A stretch of DNA of 64,000 bases from a virus, in the IMG/VR virus record IMGVR_UViG_3300044675_001548, positions 1 through 64,000 of that record, one strand, 5' to 3'. Both the position numbers and the translations under genes were made by a program. The notes below the pieces were generated by a model. That model ran no database searches. It worked only from the letters and a program-made list of their open reading frames with translations, and was not told the origin of the DNA. Shown here piece after piece: positions 1 through 20,803 of this stretch. The stretch's first letter is position 1. Each line of letters starts with the position of its first letter.

Positions 1-549
1 ATTTACTTCTTCTATTATATAACCACCTTTTCTGTACTGTTCTATTTCCTCAGGTGTTAGTTCAGTTTCAATAAAACCGCCATCCTGATAGTACTTAGCA
101 TTGGGATTAAATATCTTATTTCTTTTAGACTTGGGTTTTTTGAATAATGGATTTTGTGCAAATAATATATTAGTAGCTTCAAGACTTCTTGAATACTTTT
201 TAGAAGCTAAACCTTTCTTACTTGGTTTAGGCATCTGCACAAGTCCTCTAGTTCTACCACCCTTGCGCATAAAATCCTCTGGCTGTTCTAGCTCAGGTTG
301 CATTCTATAATTAGTAGTCAGTTCTTCCCCAGGTTTAATATCCCTTTTGGCATACACATATCTTTTGTCACCAACCTTAACACTATGCATATTTGGCTCA
401 TCAGAGTGATTATGCATATTACCCAGTGTACCTACAGGCTGACCTTGTTTATGTGCAAGACCTATTCTTTCACCTTGTCTAATTTGGTTCTTTGCAAATA
501 ATCCTTTATCTGCATTTGGTATTTTAGATTTGGATACTTTATACTTCAT
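1..549 (-). CDS. SET-domain (lysine methyltransferase) protein, N-terminal 183 codons; runs off the left edge; absent from ORF track
   Basis: Hand translation from ATG 549-547, which overlaps the upstream TAA: MKYKVSKSKIPNADKGLFAKNQIRQGERI...NHSDEPN...YAKRDIKPGEELTTNY...MRKGG...YQDGG...YRKGG. SET motifs GLFA, NHSxxPN and RDIxPGEELTxxY are present; no stop before base 1. Confidence 0.85.
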   Translation of the reverse strand, partial: MKYKVSKSKIPNADKGLFAKNQIRQGERIGLAHKQGQPVGTLGNMHNHSDEPNMHSVKVGDKRYVYAKRDIKPGEELTTNYRMQPELEQPEDFMRKGGRTRGLVQMPKPSKKGLASKKYSRSLEATNILFAQNPLFKKPKSKRNKIFNPNAKYYQDGGFIETELTPEEIEQYRKGGYIIEEVN

Positions 550-3500
550 TATCTTAAAGATATTTGGTTCTTAATATTGGATATTTTAAATATCATATTC
601 ACATTGCCTGATACCATTCTTGACAAACTTAAGAAATTTAAATAATGTCTAAACTTCTTTCTTTGCAAAAGTGGTTTTACATAATCTAAGTTAGCTTGAT
701 TAAGAAGTCTCTTATAACCACTAGGACCTGTCTCCCATATCTGTCTCTCATCATAGTTACCTAATAGTTGTGTAGTTCCTGGGATAAGTGGTCCTTGTGG
801 AGGATAACTTGATCCTATTGGAAACTCAGCTCTATCTTTTGTGATATCCCAGAATTGGTTTAGTCTATATTTGTTTTCTTCTTTAGAGAATAAGATATCA
901 TATCCTGGAACTGGTAAATATGTTGGGTCTACAGATAAAGATGGATTAGGTCGTGGGTATTGTAAACTTAAAGCTACATTATTCTTAGGGAATATGTTTA
1001 AGTTTAAGTATCCGGAAACTTGCTCTGAGTTATATATCAGGGCTCTGTCAAAATTAAAATCAAGAACATGATATTGGTCAAAGCAGTTATACTCAGATCT
1101 TTTGTAACACTCTAATATATACTCTACAGATTTAATTGTAGTTACTGTTTGTCCTGTTGATACAGGTATCTCTATTTCAAATGGGTAATCTACACCATAG
1201 AAGTTACAGTAAGTTCCACATGTTCCACCTGGGTTAGTATCATGCTTCCATATATTAGCCATCAACTGTTGAGTACCATTAAAGGTCTCTCTTACAGTTT
1301 TAGTTGTAAGATAGTTTACTTTAGTTGGTAAAGTTAAATCAGGATGCCAGTCATGGAATGAGATAAAGAAATTATTCTTAGGGTCAAAGCTTACTGTCCA
1401 AGAAGCATCTTCAAATAAGAAAGGATCTCCTAGCAAATACTTGGCTTGACCATCTAATAAAAAGAAGTCACCTTGTCTTCTATAAAGAGTTCCAAAAGGA
1501 GCTGGTCTTTTTGGCTCATTATTAAGTGGTATGTACTCAACTCTACCTTTGAATATATCTCTTAACTTATAGTCTTTTTTAGTAAAGTATAGTACAGAGT
1601 TTTCATTATCATATAATGTTTGACAACCAATACCAGCCACAGGATTATCATTCCATGGATAGTCAGGGAAGTCTACAGTTAACTTATACGGTAAGAAATT
1701 ATTAAACCACCACTTCAAGCCATTCTGTGATATTTCTTTTATACCATCACCATAGCTAAATATCTTACCTTGGTTCTGAGATATATAATATATTCCTGCA
1801 GGAGATGATATTACAGAAAGTCTGTTCTGTGATGAACCATACTCATATGTTCTATCCGCATTAGTTACAGATTGCCCAGGTTGGCTGAACAAACCTCCGT
1901 CACCTATAGTAAGTTTAGTACCAAGTTCAGTTTGTAATTGATCAATACCTTGGAACATTAATGGGCTGTCATTCTTGAATGTAATGAATAAACCACTCTT
2001 GTTTACTTGTTTTATACCACTTACTTCACTAATAAAATCTTTGTAGTTATTAGCAAGGAATATGATCCAGTTATCTCCTCTATAGCTTGTGTCAGATTGT
2101 TGTAGTGAATAAATGATTCTGTTTGGATTATAAGTATAACATAGTGATGCTACTTTAGGATCATAGTATCTACTTTGTAAAGTACCATATGAAAAGTAAT
2201 TAGTAAATAGTTTGGATATACTTAGTGAATAATCATATCTATATTCATTGCCTCTGGTTATAATCTGAGGATCCATGTTAAACATAGACACTAGGTCTGT
2301 GTATTTATATGGGTTATAACTTTTTTCCCATTCATAGTCTCCATCAATTCTAAAGTCTACAAGTACTTCAGACTCCACAAAGAAATCTCTTACAGAAGAG
2401 TTAGCTAAATAAAAGAAAGAGTCTTTAGGTCTAAACTTACCTGGATATCCTGGTGGACCTTGAATAAGACCAAATGGAGTTGGTGGAATTATACCATTTG
2501 ATAAACTATAAAAAGGGTTATCTAAATAATAAAAGTCTTCAGGACTTGTTCCTGTTGCCGTAGGGACTGCTGTTACACCAGATCCAGAAAAACCCAAAAG
2601 ATCAGATGAATCAAACCTTTCAGAGTTTGCATAGAATCTTGCATATGGAATCATGTTTCTTATAGCATAATTATATTCAAACCCATCAGGCTGTCCATAT
2701 AACCAGTCATAGAAAAAGAACATAGAATTCTTTTCTGTATATCTATTTATAAAAATGTCACCACCAAATAAAACAGGAGTTGTTGTTAGTTTACGTTGTG
2801 TTACTTGTTCATCATAACATATACCACTTGTTACATGAGAATTAAATATGTTACTTCCTGTACCTATTTTTTGTTCACAAGGTGTTATTACTATTTGTTT
2901 TATTCCTTGATATGTAGATTGTAACTGTCCATACTGATTACCTAGTCTTACTTTGACAGAAGCATAATGACTTGCAATCCTTGTTGAAAAAGGTAGTGTA
3001 TAATCTTTATAGTCTGGTAAATTTGTATTACTGGGAACTGCTGGAAAAGGTCCATGAACTATTGTACCAAGTGTTTGTAAACTTTGATCAATATAGTTAC
3101 CTGAAGCATCTTGTATAAAAGAAGGACCTTTATTTTGGTTATTTTGTTGTACACCACAGTCTGTTCTTAATACAACTGTGTCAGATCTTTTAAGATTATT
3201 AATACTGTAATTACGGGTTGTTGTTCCAATAACAGGCAGTGTAATTTGATATCTAGGTAATTCAAGTGTATTATCTCTAAGATATGTACTATCTTCAATT
3301 CTAAATCTAACTGTGTCAGTACTTTTATTTGCACCAAAGGCTCCATAAAAACCATGGGCAATCATTTGCAATGCATACTGATCCCACTTAACACATGCAT
3401 ATACACCTCTTAGTGCAATGTCTACACCCTCACTAAAGTAAAATATAAATTGATTTAGTCCACCAACAAGTCTTGAGTATGGATCCATATAAGCAGACTT

Positions 3501-6202: not shown

Positions 6203-7246
6203 TTATATAACTCTAGTATTTCCGTAATATCTATAAAATGCTGCATTAGGACTATAGCTTTTAAACATGTCATAGTACTTGTTGTACTGGGCTCTTCTGT
6301 TTGTCCACCAAAGTTTTTCCATTTCTTTAAAGTTTGGTGTGTTAACTAAGCTAAGTGCTTGGTTTCTTGCAGCTCTAAGTCTTTGATCAATTAGACCCAT
6401 CCTTTGAGAAACATCTTCTCCGTTCATAAATAAGTTCTCAAGTATTCTTTGTTTTAAAGCATACTCATAATACTCATTAAGTAAATCATGATCAGGTACA
6501 AGTAAGTTACCAGCATTGTCTTCTAATGCTCCTTGGTAATTAAGATATACATTACCTGTCTGAAAGTTTGTAAAAAGAAAACCATCTTTTATCCATCCTT
6601 CAAATGCTGTATTCATGTACAAGTTTGGACAATCACATTCTATACTTTGACTAGCTTTCATTTTTAATGGAATCAGTCTTCTGTATGTTCTTGTTTCTGT
6701 TCTACTCATTATCTGGACCAACTCATACTTTTCACCTTTACAGTTCATGAATACTCTTGGTGGTATACATGTGTCTCCGTAAGGATTGTTTGGATCATAT
6801 GCTGTTGGTATTGGATCTACTATAGGATGATTAAGATCACAAGCTGCTGTATGATTGCATGGATTAGCATTACATGTTCTACAGTTTACACTTTCTGGAG
6901 CACATTGATTTACTGTAGATGGAAACTCTTTGTATGGAACTTCTTGTATATTAGTTCCTCCGGCTGGCCCACCATAACTTGTAGCAAGATCAAACTCTCC
7001 GCATAGTAATGCATAGTTAAATACATAGAAGTCATCTGGTAGTTTTACTTTACCATGACAAACTTCTAATACAACTTCTCTAGTTTGATTTATCCTTAGA
7101 CCCAAATCATAGTTAAGTTTTTTAACCAGTTTGATTAAAGTCTGAGGCTCTATCATATTTTCTAGAGCAAATGTATTCATGTCTACTGTCACATCTTCCA
7201 GCAGCTGATCAAATGTTCTATAGCGGAGTGTATAATTAAAATCCAT
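6203..7246 (-). CDS. Virion structural protein, ring/tail-tubular-like, 347 aa
   Basis: Long ORF between ring-like and stabilisation genes; C-terminal EYYEYALKQRILE helix region resembles adaptor proteins. Confidence 0.45.
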   Translation of the reverse strand: MDFNYTLRYRTFDQLLEDVTVDMNTFALENMIEPQTLIKLVKKLNYDLGLRINQTREVVLEVCHGKVKLPDDFYVFNYALLCGEFDLATSYGGPAGGTNIQEVPYKEFPSTVNQCAPESVNCRTCNANPCNHTAACDLNHPIVDPIPTAYDPNNPYGDTCIPPRVFMNCKGEKYELVQIMSRTETRTYRRLIPLKMKASQSIECDCPNLYMNTAFEGWIKDGFLFTNFQTGNVYLNYQGALEDNAGNLLVPDHDLLNEYYEYALKQRILENLFMNGEDVSQRMGLIDQRLRAARNQALSLVNTPNFKEMEKLWWTNRRAQYNKYYDMFKSYSPNAAFYRYYGNTRVI

Positions 7247-7911
7247 TATCTAAGTATATTTTGCCCATCATCTGTAGAGTCTACAGGTACTGACATCAGC
7301 ATGGTTAATTCTTTTACAACAAGTTGCTCTACTTCAGCAAACAAATATTCTGGTAATGGAAGTGTTTCATCTTGTCTTACCAAACACTCTGCTGCAGGAT
7401 CACATATATCTACATTACCTTCAAATATTGCTTCCATCTTAATTGCATCCCAATCTATGTTTGGACAATACACATAACCATTAAGGTACCAGAAATATGG
7501 CTTCTTGTTATACTTAAATGTTGTTGTCTTAGTCATAGAAACCCAAGTACCAGGATCTGTTCTGAACATTTCTATAGATCCATCTATAGAAGATGTGGTA
7601 CGGATAATAGGACCAAACACACCATTAAGTATAGTTGGTAATTTATCTTTGGATCTTTTTATGTAACACTCAGAATATACACCAACACATCCAGCTTCTA
7701 CTTTGTCTACATCTATAAGTTCAATATAGGGAAGCACTTTGAAGATAGAACTTATCTTCATAAGTCTAAATTGATTATCTTCTCTTTTAATCAGAGCCTG
7801 AGAATACTTTTGCAAAGCAAAATATATTTGCCTGTCTGTTAAAAAGGGATCTTCTTTAACAGCTTTTACAGCATTCCTAACTCTTGATATTGCTTCACCT
7901 ATTGTTGTCAT
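7246..7911 (-). CDS. Virion structural protein, ring/adaptor-like, 221 aa
   Basis: TIGEAISRVRN...LTDRQI N-terminus and C-terminal LPEYL..VEQLV resemble crAss-like ring proteins; synteny. Confidence 0.45.
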   Translation of the reverse strand: MTTIGEAISRVRNAVKAVKEDPFLTDRQIYFALQKYSQALIKREDNQFRLMKISSIFKVLPYIELIDVDKVEAGCVGVYSECYIKRSKDKLPTILNGVFGPIIRTTSSIDGSIEMFRTDPGTWVSMTKTTTFKYNKKPYFWYLNGYVYCPNIDWDAIKMEAIFEGNVDICDPAAECLVRQDETLPLPEYLFAEVEQLVVKELTMLMSVPVDSTDDGQNILR

Positions 7912-17267: not shown

Positions 17268-18248
17268 CTATCTTTTTTTAGCTCCACCTAATTTTTTAAT
17301 AACACCTCTTCCTTTAAGAATGTCAGCTCTAGTAACTTTACCATCTTTATTTAAATCTGGAAAACCACCTTTCTGCATTTTACGTGCTGTTACACATCTT
17401 CCATTCTCATCTCTTACTGTACCTCCTTTACAAGAAGCTTGTACAGCACGGTTAGGTGCAAAGGATCCGCCAGACTGTAAAATTCTACCGGCATCACTTC
17501 TTGGGTTGTTAGAATACTTAGGCATTCCTACTATTGTAGATCCACCCATTTGATATTTTTTAGTTGCACCACCTCTTCTTTTTTGTTCAGTAGTATTAGA
17601 AGCTAGTTGTTTTCTTGCTTCTTTACTTGTCATAGTTGGATTAGACTTTTTAAGTTCTTTAACAGCTTTTCTTTTTTTGCTATAATCAGAAATCATTTTA
17701 CCAGCTACACTAACAGCACCACTAATAGATGTAGCAAGGCCTGCTACAGCTGATGTACAATCAATACACTTTTTACCATTCCAACATTTATTAATACCAG
17801 GACAAGGCTTACTAGAAGAACCACCTTTGGCCATCTTGCTTACAGGACTAATTTTACCTGTTCTTTTTTTAATATCTGAATGAACTTTGTCTTGTAATTC
17901 TTTAAACGGACTTTGTTTAACACCAGGTTTAACCGGTCTTACAGGACCACCTTTTTGTTTTTTATCTGGAACATGCATAGTTTTTTTAACTTTAGATTTG
18001 AGTGAATTATACCAGTCTGGTTGTTTTTGATCTGTATCTGTTATTTTATCATCTACATATTTCAGAGCTTTAGTTACCTTATCATGAGGAACATTGAATG
18101 GATATGTTTTTCTAAAAACATTATCTAGACCTTTTGAAATATCCTCAGTAAAAGAAGTAGTTTTACCACCCTTTTGCATTTTCTTAACAGCAGCAACTTT
18201 GCCACCAGATTTCATTTTACCACCACAACCGTATTTACAAGTTTTCAT
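17268..18248 (-). CDS. Lys-rich protein with about ten xxxGG motifs, 326 aa
   Basis: MKSGG, MQKGG x2, KQKGG, MAKGG, KRRGG, YQMGG, LQSGG, KKLGG; also PDLNKDGKVTRADIL (EF-hand/dockerin-like). Confidence 0.8.
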   Translation of the reverse strand: MKTCKYGCGGKMKSGGKVAAVKKMQKGGKTTSFTEDISKGLDNVFRKTYPFNVPHDKVTKALKYVDDKITDTDQKQPDWYNSLKSKVKKTMHVPDKKQKGGPVRPVKPGVKQSPFKELQDKVHSDIKKRTGKISPVSKMAKGGSSSKPCPGINKCWNGKKCIDCTSAVAGLATSISGAVSVAGKMISDYSKKRKAVKELKKSNPTMTSKEARKQLASNTTEQKRRGGATKKYQMGGSTIVGMPKYSNNPRSDAGRILQSGGSFAPNRAVQASCKGGTVRDENGRCVTARKMQKGGFPDLNKDGKVTRADILKGRGVIKKLGGAKKR

Positions 18249-18260
18249 TTTATATATGTT

Positions 18261-18785
18261 TTAACAATTCCATTTTCTTAGTGAAAGAGCCTTTCTTGTA
18301 GGTCTTCCTTTTTCATCCTTCATAGGACCTTTTACTCCAGACATTCTAGCACAGAAGCTTTTTCTTCTCTTAGCATCTTTACTTCCAGGTTTTAATTTAG
18401 AAGGTTTAGTAGTTACAGCTGTTTGAAGTTTACTTCCTGGATTCTCTCTTCTATAAGAAGCTACTCCTTTAGCATTGAGACCACCTTCTGGATTCTTACC
18501 TTCTTTCCTAGTCCATGCAGGAGAAGATCCTCCTTTCTGCATTTTTGGCTTTGGGTAAGGATTTTCTCTATGCCATCTTTTAGTATCTGCTACCCCTTGC
18601 TTAAGTGTTTTTGCTCTTCCTTTTGCTGTTAAGTCTATAGTATCCCATTCTCCTTTATCTTTAGTAGGATGATTAACCATGATATTACCAACTTTTCCCT
18701 CACCTCTTTTTGTAGTTTTTTTATAAACTACATGTTTTTCACCACCGGCAGTTACTGTTACTTTCTTAGTCTTTGCCTGTGCCAT
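18261..18785 (-). CDS. Basic protein; C-terminal domain recalled as DUF6321-like
   Basis: MQKGG followed by GGLNAKG...RRKSFCARM.G...RKWNC. Confidence 0.65.
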   Translation of the reverse strand: MAQAKTKKVTVTAGGEKHVVYKKTTKRGEGKVGNIMVNHPTKDKGEWDTIDLTAKGRAKTLKQGVADTKRWHRENPYPKPKMQKGGSSPAWTRKEGKNPEGGLNAKGVASYRRENPGSKLQTAVTTKPSKLKPGSKDAKRRKSFCARMSGVKGPMKDEKGRPTRKALSLRKWNC

Positions 18786-18787
18786 GA

Positions 18788-19027
18788 TTAAATCTTTTTA
18801 CCAGCAGCAATACTGTTAAATTCTTTTGCTTTCTCAGCAGCCATTTTCTTTACATCAGCCATAAGCTTAGCATTCTTTTGTATCTCAGATGCTCTCTGTA
18901 ATGTAGACATAGCAGATTCAATTTCCCATTTTCTTTGTTCTGCTTTACCACCAAAAATGGAAATACCAACTGAAGAAGTTGATTTCTTAGCTGGTGCTTT
19001 TTTAGTTGTTGTTTTTTTAATTGCCAT
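18788..19027 (-). CDS. Small basic protein, 79 aa
   Basis: ORF track; histone-H1-like KKTTTKKAPAKK N-terminus. Confidence 0.75.
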   Translation of the reverse strand: MAIKKTTTKKAPAKKSTSSVGISIFGGKAEQRKWEIESAMSTLQRASEIQKNAKLMADVKKMAAEKAKEFNSIAAGKKI

Positions 19028-19032
19028 AACTA

Positions 19033-19296
19033 TTAATGTTTTTTAGATGTTCTCAATCCTTTAGTAGAAGTTTGTCTTCTCAATGAACTTCCTTTTATTA
19101 CTGATCCACCTTTTTTCTTTACTATAGGACCTGGTTCTGCAGGTTTATAAGGTGTAGGTATGAACATTTCATTGTTAGGATCATTTGCAGGATTATTTTC
19201 TGCAGATCTAAAAGCTGCTTGAGCCGCTTCCTTTTGTGTCATAGGACCAGCTTCTATACCATTTTGACCCTTAATTAATTTTTTTTTTGATTTCAT
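19033..19296 (-). CDS. Small basic protein, 87 aa
   Basis: ORF track; GQNG and KKKGG motifs. Confidence 0.7.
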   Translation of the reverse strand: MKSKKKLIKGQNGIEAGPMTQKEAAQAAFRSAENNPANDPNNEMFIPTPYKPAEPGPIVKKKGGSVIKGSSLRRQTSTKGLRTSKKH

Positions 19297-19298
19297 AA

Positions 19299-19637
19299 CT
19301 ATACTTTTTTAACTCTTCTTCCCATACCTACTCTAGACTTCTCAGCTTTTTTAGCAGCTAGTTTAGAAGGAGTTAGTTCACTTTTAGTTTTAGGAGTATC
19401 TCTTGATACTCTTTTTGTAGGCCGGCAGTATTCATTTTTACCACCGGCACCACAAGGTTTTCCTGATTTAGTATCTTGCCACTTTTCCGCTTGCCATCTT
19501 TTAAGCTCAGTTCCTTTCTCAGTCTTTCTAACAGTGCCTTTACCTTTACGGCATTTGGCAATTGCTTGAGAAGCTCTTGCTGAAGGGAACACAGCATATC
19601 GTGCTTTTACACTATGATAGCAAGAATCCTTTGGCAT
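19299..19637 (-). CDS. Basic Cys-containing phage protein, 112 aa
   Basis: LKRWQAEKWQD...CG...YCRPTKRVS..TPKT pattern recalled from environmental phages. Confidence 0.7.
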   Translation of the reverse strand: MPKDSCYHSVKARYAVFPSARASQAIAKCRKGKGTVRKTEKGTELKRWQAEKWQDTKSGKPCGAGGKNEYCRPTKRVSRDTPKTKSELTPSKLAAKKAEKSRVGMGRRVKKV

Positions 19638-19639
19638 GA

Positions 19640-20803
19640 CTATCCTCTTTTCTTGTTAATCATACGGTTAGCTTTGTCCTGAGAAATAGATCTAGTTCTT
19701 GAGCTAGTTACTTTACCGCTATTATCAGTCTTAGTTACATTAACAGAACCTTTAGCTCCTGGATAAATTCCACCAGCACTAATAGTTTTAGTTCTAGTTC
19801 CTCCTTTAATTACACCAAGCCCACCAACTTTTCTATCTCTTGTTTTAGTAGCACTAGCTCCTTCACCCATAACACCTCTTTTGTAAGGATCATCTACTGA
19901 CCAACCTTTCTGAGCTTTTGGAAGTGCTTTCTTAGGAGCAACAGATGTACCACCTGAACGTCCTCTAGCAACTTTAGAAGCAGCAGCTTTAGGATTAACT
20001 CCAGACTTAACACCTTTAGAACCTGCAGATTTTGCAGCTTGAAGTTTAGCATTAGGGTTTACCATACCACCTGTTTTGTAAGTAGTTCCACCATTTTGAG
20101 CTCTTGCTGTTTTTGGCATTGGTGCATCTGGTCCTTTATAAGTTGGTATTGCACTATCAACATATTTTTTTGGAACAGTAGTTCTTTTTGGAGTTGGTTT
20201 TGTAGTACCACCTTTTTGATATTTTTTAGCATCAGGTGCTTTCATTTTTTCTTTCCAGTTAGTAGTATCAACTTTACTTGATTTATTAGATGGAATATAA
20301 CCTGAACTATTCTTTGAAACATATTCAAGTGTTTCTTTTGTGGTTGGCATTTTTTCACCTTTGGCTTTATACATAGCTTTGATAGGATCTGATGCTCCAC
20401 CATTCTGATGTTTCCTCAGTTGTCTTTTCATTGCATTCTGTTTTGCTTTTTTAGCTCCTTCAGTATTAATTACTAAATCTTTTACTTTAAGTTTTTTTGA
20501 CTTAGCAGGTTCATTTACCATAGGTGGAACAGTTCCATGAGTCATAGAACCAGGTCCATGTGGTGCAGAACCACCTTTTTGATATTTTGTAGTACCACCT
20601 TTTTGTTGTTCTTTAAGTTTTTTGTAAGCAGCATAACCTCCAAGACCACCAGCAATTGCTCCTAGTGTACCTAGGATGCTTCCTTTAGTTTCTTTAGATT
20701 TACCTTTACTTTTAAACTTTTGTTTACATCTAGGAGGTTTATTTGGTCCAGCACATGACGCTGCTTCTGTCATACCACCTACTTCATACTTTTTAGTTGC
20801 CAT
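19640..20803 (-). CDS. Lys-rich protein with repeated xxxGG motifs, 387 aa
   Basis: YEVGG, QQKGG, YQKGG x2, HQNGG, AQNGG, YKTGG, AQKG. Confidence 0.8.
   Translation of the reverse strand: MATKKYEVGGMTEAASCAGPNKPPRCKQKFKSKGKSKETKGSILGTLGAIAGGLGGYAAYKKLKEQQKGGTTKYQKGGSAPHGPGSMTHGTVPPMVNEPAKSKKLKVKDLVINTEGAKKAKQNAMKRQLRKHQNGGASDPIKAMYKAKGEKMPTTKETLEYVSKNSSGYIPSNKSSKVDTTNWKEKMKAPDAKKYQKGGTTKPTPKRTTVPKKYVDSAIPTYKGPDAPMPKTARAQNGGTTYKTGGMVNPNAKLQAAKSAGSKGVKSGVNPKAAASKVARGRSGGTSVAPKKALPKAQKGWSVDDPYKRGVMGEGASATKTRDRKVGGLGVIKGGTRTKTISAGGIYPGAKGSVNVTKTDNSGKVTSSRTRSISQDKANRMINKKRG

Follow-up and report, generated by a model that had tools for sequence, protein, structure and literature searches.

The open reading frame at the start of the window, a stretch of 64,000 nucleotides taken from a virus record of IMG/VR (record, 118,228 bp, rated 99% complete; window, bases 1-64000; G+C 34%), encodes what is, judged by its sequence, a genuine SET domain, placed directly after the muzzle gene of a crAss-like phage. 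We consider it about an even call that the encoded protein is a SAM-dependent lysine methyltransferase that is carried in the virion and injected. The phage is a freshwater crassvirus, as indicated by crassvirus neighbour genes and by its occurrence in lake water; it is known from metagenomes alone, is uncultured, and was seen in 24 sequencing runs of lake-water metagenomes, with no RNA run listed as containing it. Viral minimal SETs, like SET domains in general, are already known, as are phage proteins that combine several enzymes and are injected. What is new here is the context and the trimming of the SET domain, not its detection, an automatic Pfam label being already present in public collections.

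A SET domain at window positions 1-549 had been proposed in the earlier note, and the HMMER comparison bears this out, since Pfam SET (PF00856) is matched with an E value of 4.2e-12 and 46.9 bits, well above the cut-off of 22.4. The match is confined to positions 56-104 of the 105 in the profile, that is, to its C-terminal half, and a weak match to the SAF (beta-clip) family of Pfam is also present in the protein. When a profile of 11 modules was compared with the PDB, the SET domain of MLL1 (E 4e-5) and PBCV-1 vSET (1.3e-4) were retrieved, with an alignment covering both the N-terminal part, with GxG, and the C-terminal part, with NHSxxPN...GEELTxxY. The GxG motif of the SAM pocket is present as G-K-G-L-F, which aligns with GRGLF of MLL1; the NH(S/C)xxPN motif is present as H-N-H-S-D-E-P-N, with N47, H48, and P52 invariant; and the ELxF/YDY motif with the catalytic Tyr is present as G-E-E-L-T-T-N-Y, which aligns with GEELTYDY of MLL1. 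Residues G16, N47, H48, P52, E76, T78, and Y81 are invariant in 11 close relatives and in 35 architecturally diverse proteins.

The predicted structure agrees with this assignment. From an input alignment of 11 sequences, the best AF2 model reached a pLDDT of 80.7 and the other four models 61 or less. A Foldseek search with the AF2 model gave vSET as the top PDB match (3kma, TM 0.67, E 5e-6), which supplies, at the level of prediction, the structure match on which the SET reading had been made to depend. This search returned 185 PDB matches at E<=1e-3, and all chains among the matches listed are SET or PR domains. A vSET-like SET fold is thus present in one confident AF2 model. As the GxG, NH, and Tyr motifs are invariant and synonymous changes dominate between the two alleles of the gene described below (20 synonymous against 7 non-synonymous differing SET codons), the conserved SAM-binding and catalytic motifs count in favor of an enzyme. 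Nevertheless, a conserved NH and Tyr do not prove catalysis on their own, since both motifs also stabilize the SET knot.

The domain is strongly trimmed. Aligned with bacterial SET proteins of 130-155 aa, it shows a clean gap of 28 residues, in which the SET-I region with its aromatic YEYYF stretch is gone, and in the profile alignment with MLL1 about 9 residues stand in place of about 43; in neither alignment was a SET-I insert found between the N- and C-terminal SET halves. SET-I forms one wall of the substrate groove in SET structures in general; without it, the trimmed module may require a partner, may dimerize, or may be inactive. The C-flank that follows the core has Q84, E86-P90, D92, and F93 invariant in alignment A1 and Q, P, L, E, Q, P, and F in alignment A2. 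The bacterial SET proteins have an acidic/aromatic C-flank at the corresponding alignment positions. In the phage model the AF2 pLDDT of this stretch is low. The description of the domain as a minimal SET without post-SET Cys holds as well, as GLFA, HNHSDEPN, and PGEELTTNY are all present and Cys is absent from all 183 residues.

The closest viral parallel is PBCV-1 vSET (A612L; PDB 3KMA, 1N3J), also a viral minimal SET without pre- and post-SET Cys clusters. Nevertheless, vSET, from a eukaryotic virus, is a protein of 119 aa that stands alone, keeps the SET-I region, and methylates histone H3K27, whereas the phage SET has a core of about 82 aa with SET-I reduced to a few residues, belongs to a virus with a bacterial host, and is a cassette on a protein of the tail/cargo block. 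Bacterial SET proteins of 130-155 aa (L029:5947-6339, L030:5770-6237) share with it the G-[RK]-G-[VL]-F, NH(S/N)xxPN, and G-x-E-I-T-T-N-Y motifs and the acidic, then aromatic C-flank. Unlike the phage module, these stand-alone proteins keep the 28-residue segment, have neither QPELEQPEDF nor K-G-G, and are unfused; the phage module probably derives from such proteins.

Table 1. Positions of the SET protein, its parts, and neighboring genes. Positions without a prefix are those of the window; L004 and C1 precede positions in other numberings.
Feature	Position	Strand	Remarks
Trimmed SET core, residues 1-81	307..549	-	GKGLF, IGLAH, HNHSDEPN, PGEELTTNY; Pfam, PDB profile, AF2/Foldseek
C-flank R-M-Q-P-E-L-E-Q-P-E-D-F, residues 82-93	271..306	-	Best conserved stretch of the module
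Joint M-R-K-G-G, residues 94-98	256..270	-	GG after SET conserved
Lys-rich conserved anchor (RTRGLVQMPKPSKKGLASKKYSRSLEATN...KKPKSKRNK), residues 99-151	97..255	-	Near-invariant in alignment A4
C-terminal tag, about 30 aa (YYQDGG-FIETELTPEEIEQYRKGG-YIIEEVN), residues 152-183	1..96	-	Stop just off the contig
Tag copies	L004:10752-10844, L004:12396-12482, L004:5918-6016	-	Includes the copy inside the long allele
Module B (DIPVIEDAGSYNEEGFW...DDNPQMKRGG), long allele residues 97-165	L004:13052-13258	-	Replaces or accompanies SET
Long allele, 932 aa (P0002)	C1:114748-117546	-	Far contig end
Muzzle protein, 1883 aa	549..6200	-	Pfam crAss_MUZ PF25731, E 1.6e-27; directly upstream of SET gene, stop overlaps SET start
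Tail ring protein 1	6203..7246	-	Pfam CrAss_Ring_1, E 5.6e-10
Tail ring protein 2	7246..7911	-	Pfam CrAss_Ring_2, E 3.9e-23

The SET gene is a 183-codon ORF (window 1..549, minus strand) that overlaps the 1883-aa ORF upstream of it, with TAA and ATG merged as TAATG; this agrees with its earlier placement in the tail/cargo block of a phage. No stop codon occurs before the contig start, the first base of the window being base 1 of the contig. The ORF had been said to run off the edge, with its remainder in an adjacent window. It does run off, but no adjacent window precedes base 1, and the ORF is, in this allele, not a fragment of a longer gene: in locus L005, from another sample, where SET is 96% identical, the same 183-aa ORF has a stop at the homologous position and is followed after 46 nt by a homologue of the 1595-aa ORF, so the window ORF is missing its stop codon alone.

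The two ends of the contig overlap imperfectly, with window 247-1231 matching C1:117244-118228 at 94% identity and the sequences diverging beyond. True terminal repeats are expected to be identical, so we read the record as that of a permuted or circular genome whose assembly spans two strain variants. The gene is accordingly present as a short allele of 183 aa in the window and a long allele of 932 aa at the other contig end; a long form, of 958 aa, is found in L018 as well. Logan contigs matching window 1-1500 are short pieces, two of which span 24-373 with zero differences.

The short allele consists of SET, anchor, and tag and of nothing else, a minimal form also found in L005, P0148, and P0149. 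A Gly pair occurs 2-5 residues past the end of SET (F93) in 150 of 194 non-redundant modules and 1-9 residues before SET in half (36 of 72) of the modules that are not at the N-terminus. The xxKGG motifs which the earlier note saw fused to the domain, MRKGG, YQDGG, and YRKGG, are all there and the K-G-G joint is conserved, but YQDGG (residues 154-158) and YRKGG (residues 172-176) are the Gly pairs of the C-terminal tag and not free-standing motifs.

The anchor behind the joint, with the consensus (K/R)GG-RTRGLxPMPKPSKKGLASKKYSRSLEATNRLF, can be followed by its S[RK]SL.ATN motif through 138 family proteins, where it lies downstream of whichever N-terminal cassette is there. Depending on the relative, the anchor is preceded by nothing, by module A, by A and B, by SET, by SET and B (the long allele), or by A and SET, and every N-terminal module ends in x-K/R-x-G-G. 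Module A, of about 65 aa and unrelated to SET, reads MGQWKHPG...EFPQMKxGG (P0009, P0011, and others); no known family was found for modules A and B, and an ESM Atlas search with module A/B of P0009 gave no usable match. On comparison of these relatives, the SET domain is an optional N-terminal cassette, swappable at a fixed anchor and bounded by x-K-x-G-G joints, which suits a payload more than a structural component that the phage cannot do without.

The tag has the consensus GG-x-V-x-x-E-L-T-x-x-E-I-x-x-Y-x-x-x-G-Y-x-V-E-E. Its HMM finds it at the very C-terminal end of 154 family proteins, the majority of which also contain one to three internal copies, and in this genome it is confined to the SET protein, in both alleles, and the next ORF, of 1595 aa. 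No Pfam family covers the motif, which may be a virion address or docking tag. We also considered a double-glycine bacteriocin leader and rejected it: judged by eye, the hydrophobic residues are spaced one position off, and D-G or R-G often stands in place of the second Gly pair. The body of the long allele (residues 385-932) was modeled by AF2 as all-helical, but at low confidence (pLDDT 52.6), and a Foldseek search of the PDB with this model returned nothing at E<=1e-3. A Gly/Ala-rich hydrophobic stretch of the long allele, VATAIPLVGAAGAVGPAAQAVLG (residues 574-596, L004:11760-11828, minus strand), resembles the predicted membrane helix GGPIGAIVGGVVGLGSAIGGWLGG of PhiCrAss001 gp45.

The upstream gene, previously called a tail-stabilisation gene, is the crassvirus muzzle (PF25731); the older term is the GenBank name of gp44, the muzzle of PhiCrAss001, whose next gene is gp45. 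In the window the genes run in the order ring 2, ring 1, muzzle, SET gene, and the same order is found in L005, L009-L014, L016, and L098. By BLASTP, full-length muzzle homologues of 52-85% identity precede the SET gene in L005, L009-L014, and L016; in L015 the upstream ORF runs off the locus, and the muzzle match is partial (39% over 322 residues). Three upstream ORFs of about 1.8 kaa are missed by Pfam crAss_MUZ but are full-length muzzle homologues by BLASTP. A crassvirus capsid protein was found elsewhere in the same genome by a Pfam scan of the proteome. Compared with cultured phages, the best match of the muzzle has only 24% identity (Leptolyngbya phage Lbo-JY46), and by this measure the phage is far removed from them. 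Two proteins encoded between the capsid and ring genes, of 326 aa (17271-18248, minus strand) and 387 aa (19643-20803, minus strand), are GG-rich and basic, with 11 and 13 Gly-Gly pairs against 4.2 and 6.7 expected from their Gly content; in the 1595-aa ORF there are 24 such pairs, with 13 expected.

Downstream of the SET gene lie ORFs of 1595, 756, 1122, 2267, and 3829 aa, whose size and order recall the cargo and RNA-polymerase block of PhiCrAss001. In that phage, cargo protein C1 (gp45) was found in the virion, and its N-terminal third was placed by the authors in the tail barrel, poised for first ejection (Bayfield et al. 2023, PMC10172136). Like gp45, the SET gene directly follows the muzzle gene, and both proteins begin Lys-rich, contain many x-x-G-G motifs, and include a hydrophobic stretch rich in Gly and Ala; unlike the SET protein, gp45 has none of the SET motifs in its sequence. 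BLASTP gave no significant match of the 932-, 1595-, and 756-aa proteins to gp45 or of the 1122-aa protein to PhiCrAss001 gp46, and no match to a Pfam cargo family was obtained. With similarity to gp45 undetectable, it is by gene position alone that we assign the protein to the cargo, and packaging is inferred from synteny with the crassvirus cargo position. The 1595-aa ORF (L004:5918-10702, minus strand) starts with MKKKVRIYKAPDGKG...AQEGG, the 756-aa ORF (L004:3642-5909, minus strand) with MKVRIKKVPKARTGYQ, and gp45 with MAKKKIKRRGKMPPNIFDTGG; a Lys-rich start followed by GG may be a common N-terminal feature of crassvirus cargo, in proteins whose overall similarity is undetectable.

An exhaustive HMMER search returned 471 clusters (50% identity), of which 233 reach E<=1e-10, a degree of conservation well past what chance would give, so that a SET module, held to be unusual in phage structural operons, is not rare in this phage clade. 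The module mostly occupies residues 1-95 of proteins of 500-2400 aa, is internal or C-terminal in some, and also occurs in proteins of only 118-250 aa. It is almost confined to viruses. In the ESM Atlas, the nearest clusters carry a SET-domain label and have 100% viral members, with scores of 0.83-0.87, which by the tool's threshold amount to no more than a lead. Among 185,579 species genomes, the phage-type module occurs in a single contig, of 4.4 kb, in a Phycisphaerales bin; as its SET region is base-for-base identical to the long allele, we take this contig as phage DNA in a bacterial bin. The other matches in these genomes are ordinary bacterial SETs that align over the C-terminal half alone. 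The 932-aa protein had no match by tblastn in 50,697 GenBank phage records, and neither PHROGs nor NCBIfam has a family for the SET protein.

The domains that accompany the module in 35 SET-bearing relatives are Phage_lysozyme2 (5), YkuD (4), SLT (3), Amidase_2 (3), and ART-PolyVal (2). The 2377-aa protein encoded on a different crassvirus contig at L098:8001-15134 (plus strand), after a muzzle-sized ORF, combines SET with YkuD (L,D-transpeptidase) and ART-PolyVal (ADP-ribosyltransferase). In the window's own protein SET is the sole recognizable enzyme domain, next to unassigned modules, and the multi-effector pattern is seen in relatives. The lysozyme, SLT, amidase, YkuD, and ART-PolyVal domains of the SET relatives are shared with the polyvalent proteins of phages and conjugative elements, multi-domain proteins whose genes lie among late or structural ones and which accompany the DNA on delivery (Iyer et al. 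2017, PMC5512222); the main text of that paper mentions neither SET nor lysine methylation. A different arrangement is found in a second type of phage, at L006:1870-3210 (plus strand) and also in L007 and L008, where a 446-aa protein starts with a Pol-beta-type nucleotidyltransferase and ends with SET. This fusion keeps QPELEQPEDF and KGG and adjoins a MoxR-like AAA ATPase and DUF5872, with no recognizable virion genes.

Taken as a virion-carried methyltransferase, the 183-aa short form would be the first protein of the cargo/ejection gene block, with SET as the payload and the tag as an address keeping the protein with the virion cargo. Its place would be behind the muzzle, from which it would be expelled when the phage infects; SET would then methylate lysines, with S-adenosylmethionine as the methyl donor, in proteins of the host or in phage proteins injected alongside. 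The synteny with the cargo position, the relatives with lysozyme, amidase, YkuD, and ART-PolyVal domains, and the common C-terminal tag fit packaging and ejection. The protein might instead be made late and act in the producing cell without being packaged, or be a SAM binder that transfers no methyl group. We regard this as very unlikely: packaging is, admittedly, read from position, but the start is coupled to the muzzle stop, the synteny is conserved, the giant ORF that comes next in the block bears the same C-terminal tag, and the relatives carry cell-wall-degrading domains typical of ejected proteins.

Whether the module acts as an enzyme is a separate point, as the SET fold could serve as a compact beta-clip block, a non-enzymatic plug or adaptor in the tail barrel or against the muzzle. 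Such a role would suit the deletion of SET-I, the weak SAF (beta-clip) match, the replacement of the module by the unrelated small modules A and B, and its place at the N-terminus of the post-muzzle protein, given that PhiCrAss001 has an unassigned cargo helix bound to its muzzle (PMC10172136). Nevertheless, the SAM-binding and catalytic motifs are invariant everywhere, including in C-terminal and internal copies and in the non-structural nucleotidyltransferase fusion, and many relatives with the same anchor and body do without the module, so we consider a plug unlikely. If the module is active, its targets might be the Lys-rich proteins of the phage itself at assembly rather than those of the host, for instance its own anchor, which directly follows SET, or the GG-rich basic proteins encoded nearby (17271-20803). 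Relatives without SET keep the same anchor, however, so methylation of the anchor cannot be essential, and we think this target choice improbable. A protease that cuts the x-K-x-G-G joints and frees a SET of about 95 aa in the capsid or in the host would be compatible with the injected methyltransferase. By comparison among the relatives, the GG joints are real module borders, found on either side of SET in most relatives and at the end of each N-terminal cassette; against cleavage, the 25 Pfam families listed, of 39 in the whole proteome, include no evident maturation protease, and we find such processing quite unlikely.

Phages inject ADP-ribosyltransferases, RNA polymerases, and anti-restriction proteins, T4 Alt being the classic injected modifying enzyme, but we know of no injected phage protein lysine methyltransferase, and a literature search likewise found none described. 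The search also found no SET domain described in crassvirus or other phage virion proteins; the occurrences of "set" in the PhiCrAss001 paper (PMC10172136) refer to "C2-set" immunoglobulin domains and not to SET.

The injected methyltransferase proposed here recalls the secreted SET effectors of intracellular bacteria, Legionella RomA/LegAS4 and Chlamydia NUE, in which a SET enzyme is likewise put into a target cell to modify proteins. Those effectors differ in being full-size SETs that reach eukaryotic cells through bacterial secretion systems and have histones as their targets.

We tentatively suggest, while holding it doubtful as a whole, that lake crassviruses load a cut-down SET at the leading end of their ejected cargo, as one of several small modules strung together by x-K-x-G-G and addressed by the tag. 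This would be the first protein lysine methyltransferase known to be injected by a phage, and its core of about 82 aa, working without SET-I, would be the smallest active SET known. An active module would set the minimal SET scaffold at about 82 residues, and the natural 183-aa form, with SET, anchor, and tag, is small enough for direct expression. The tag and the joints suggest a route to study how cargo is addressed to the virion. An active module would also give a handle on the function of crassvirus cargo proteins and would mean that phages use lysine methylation, too, in taking over bacteria.
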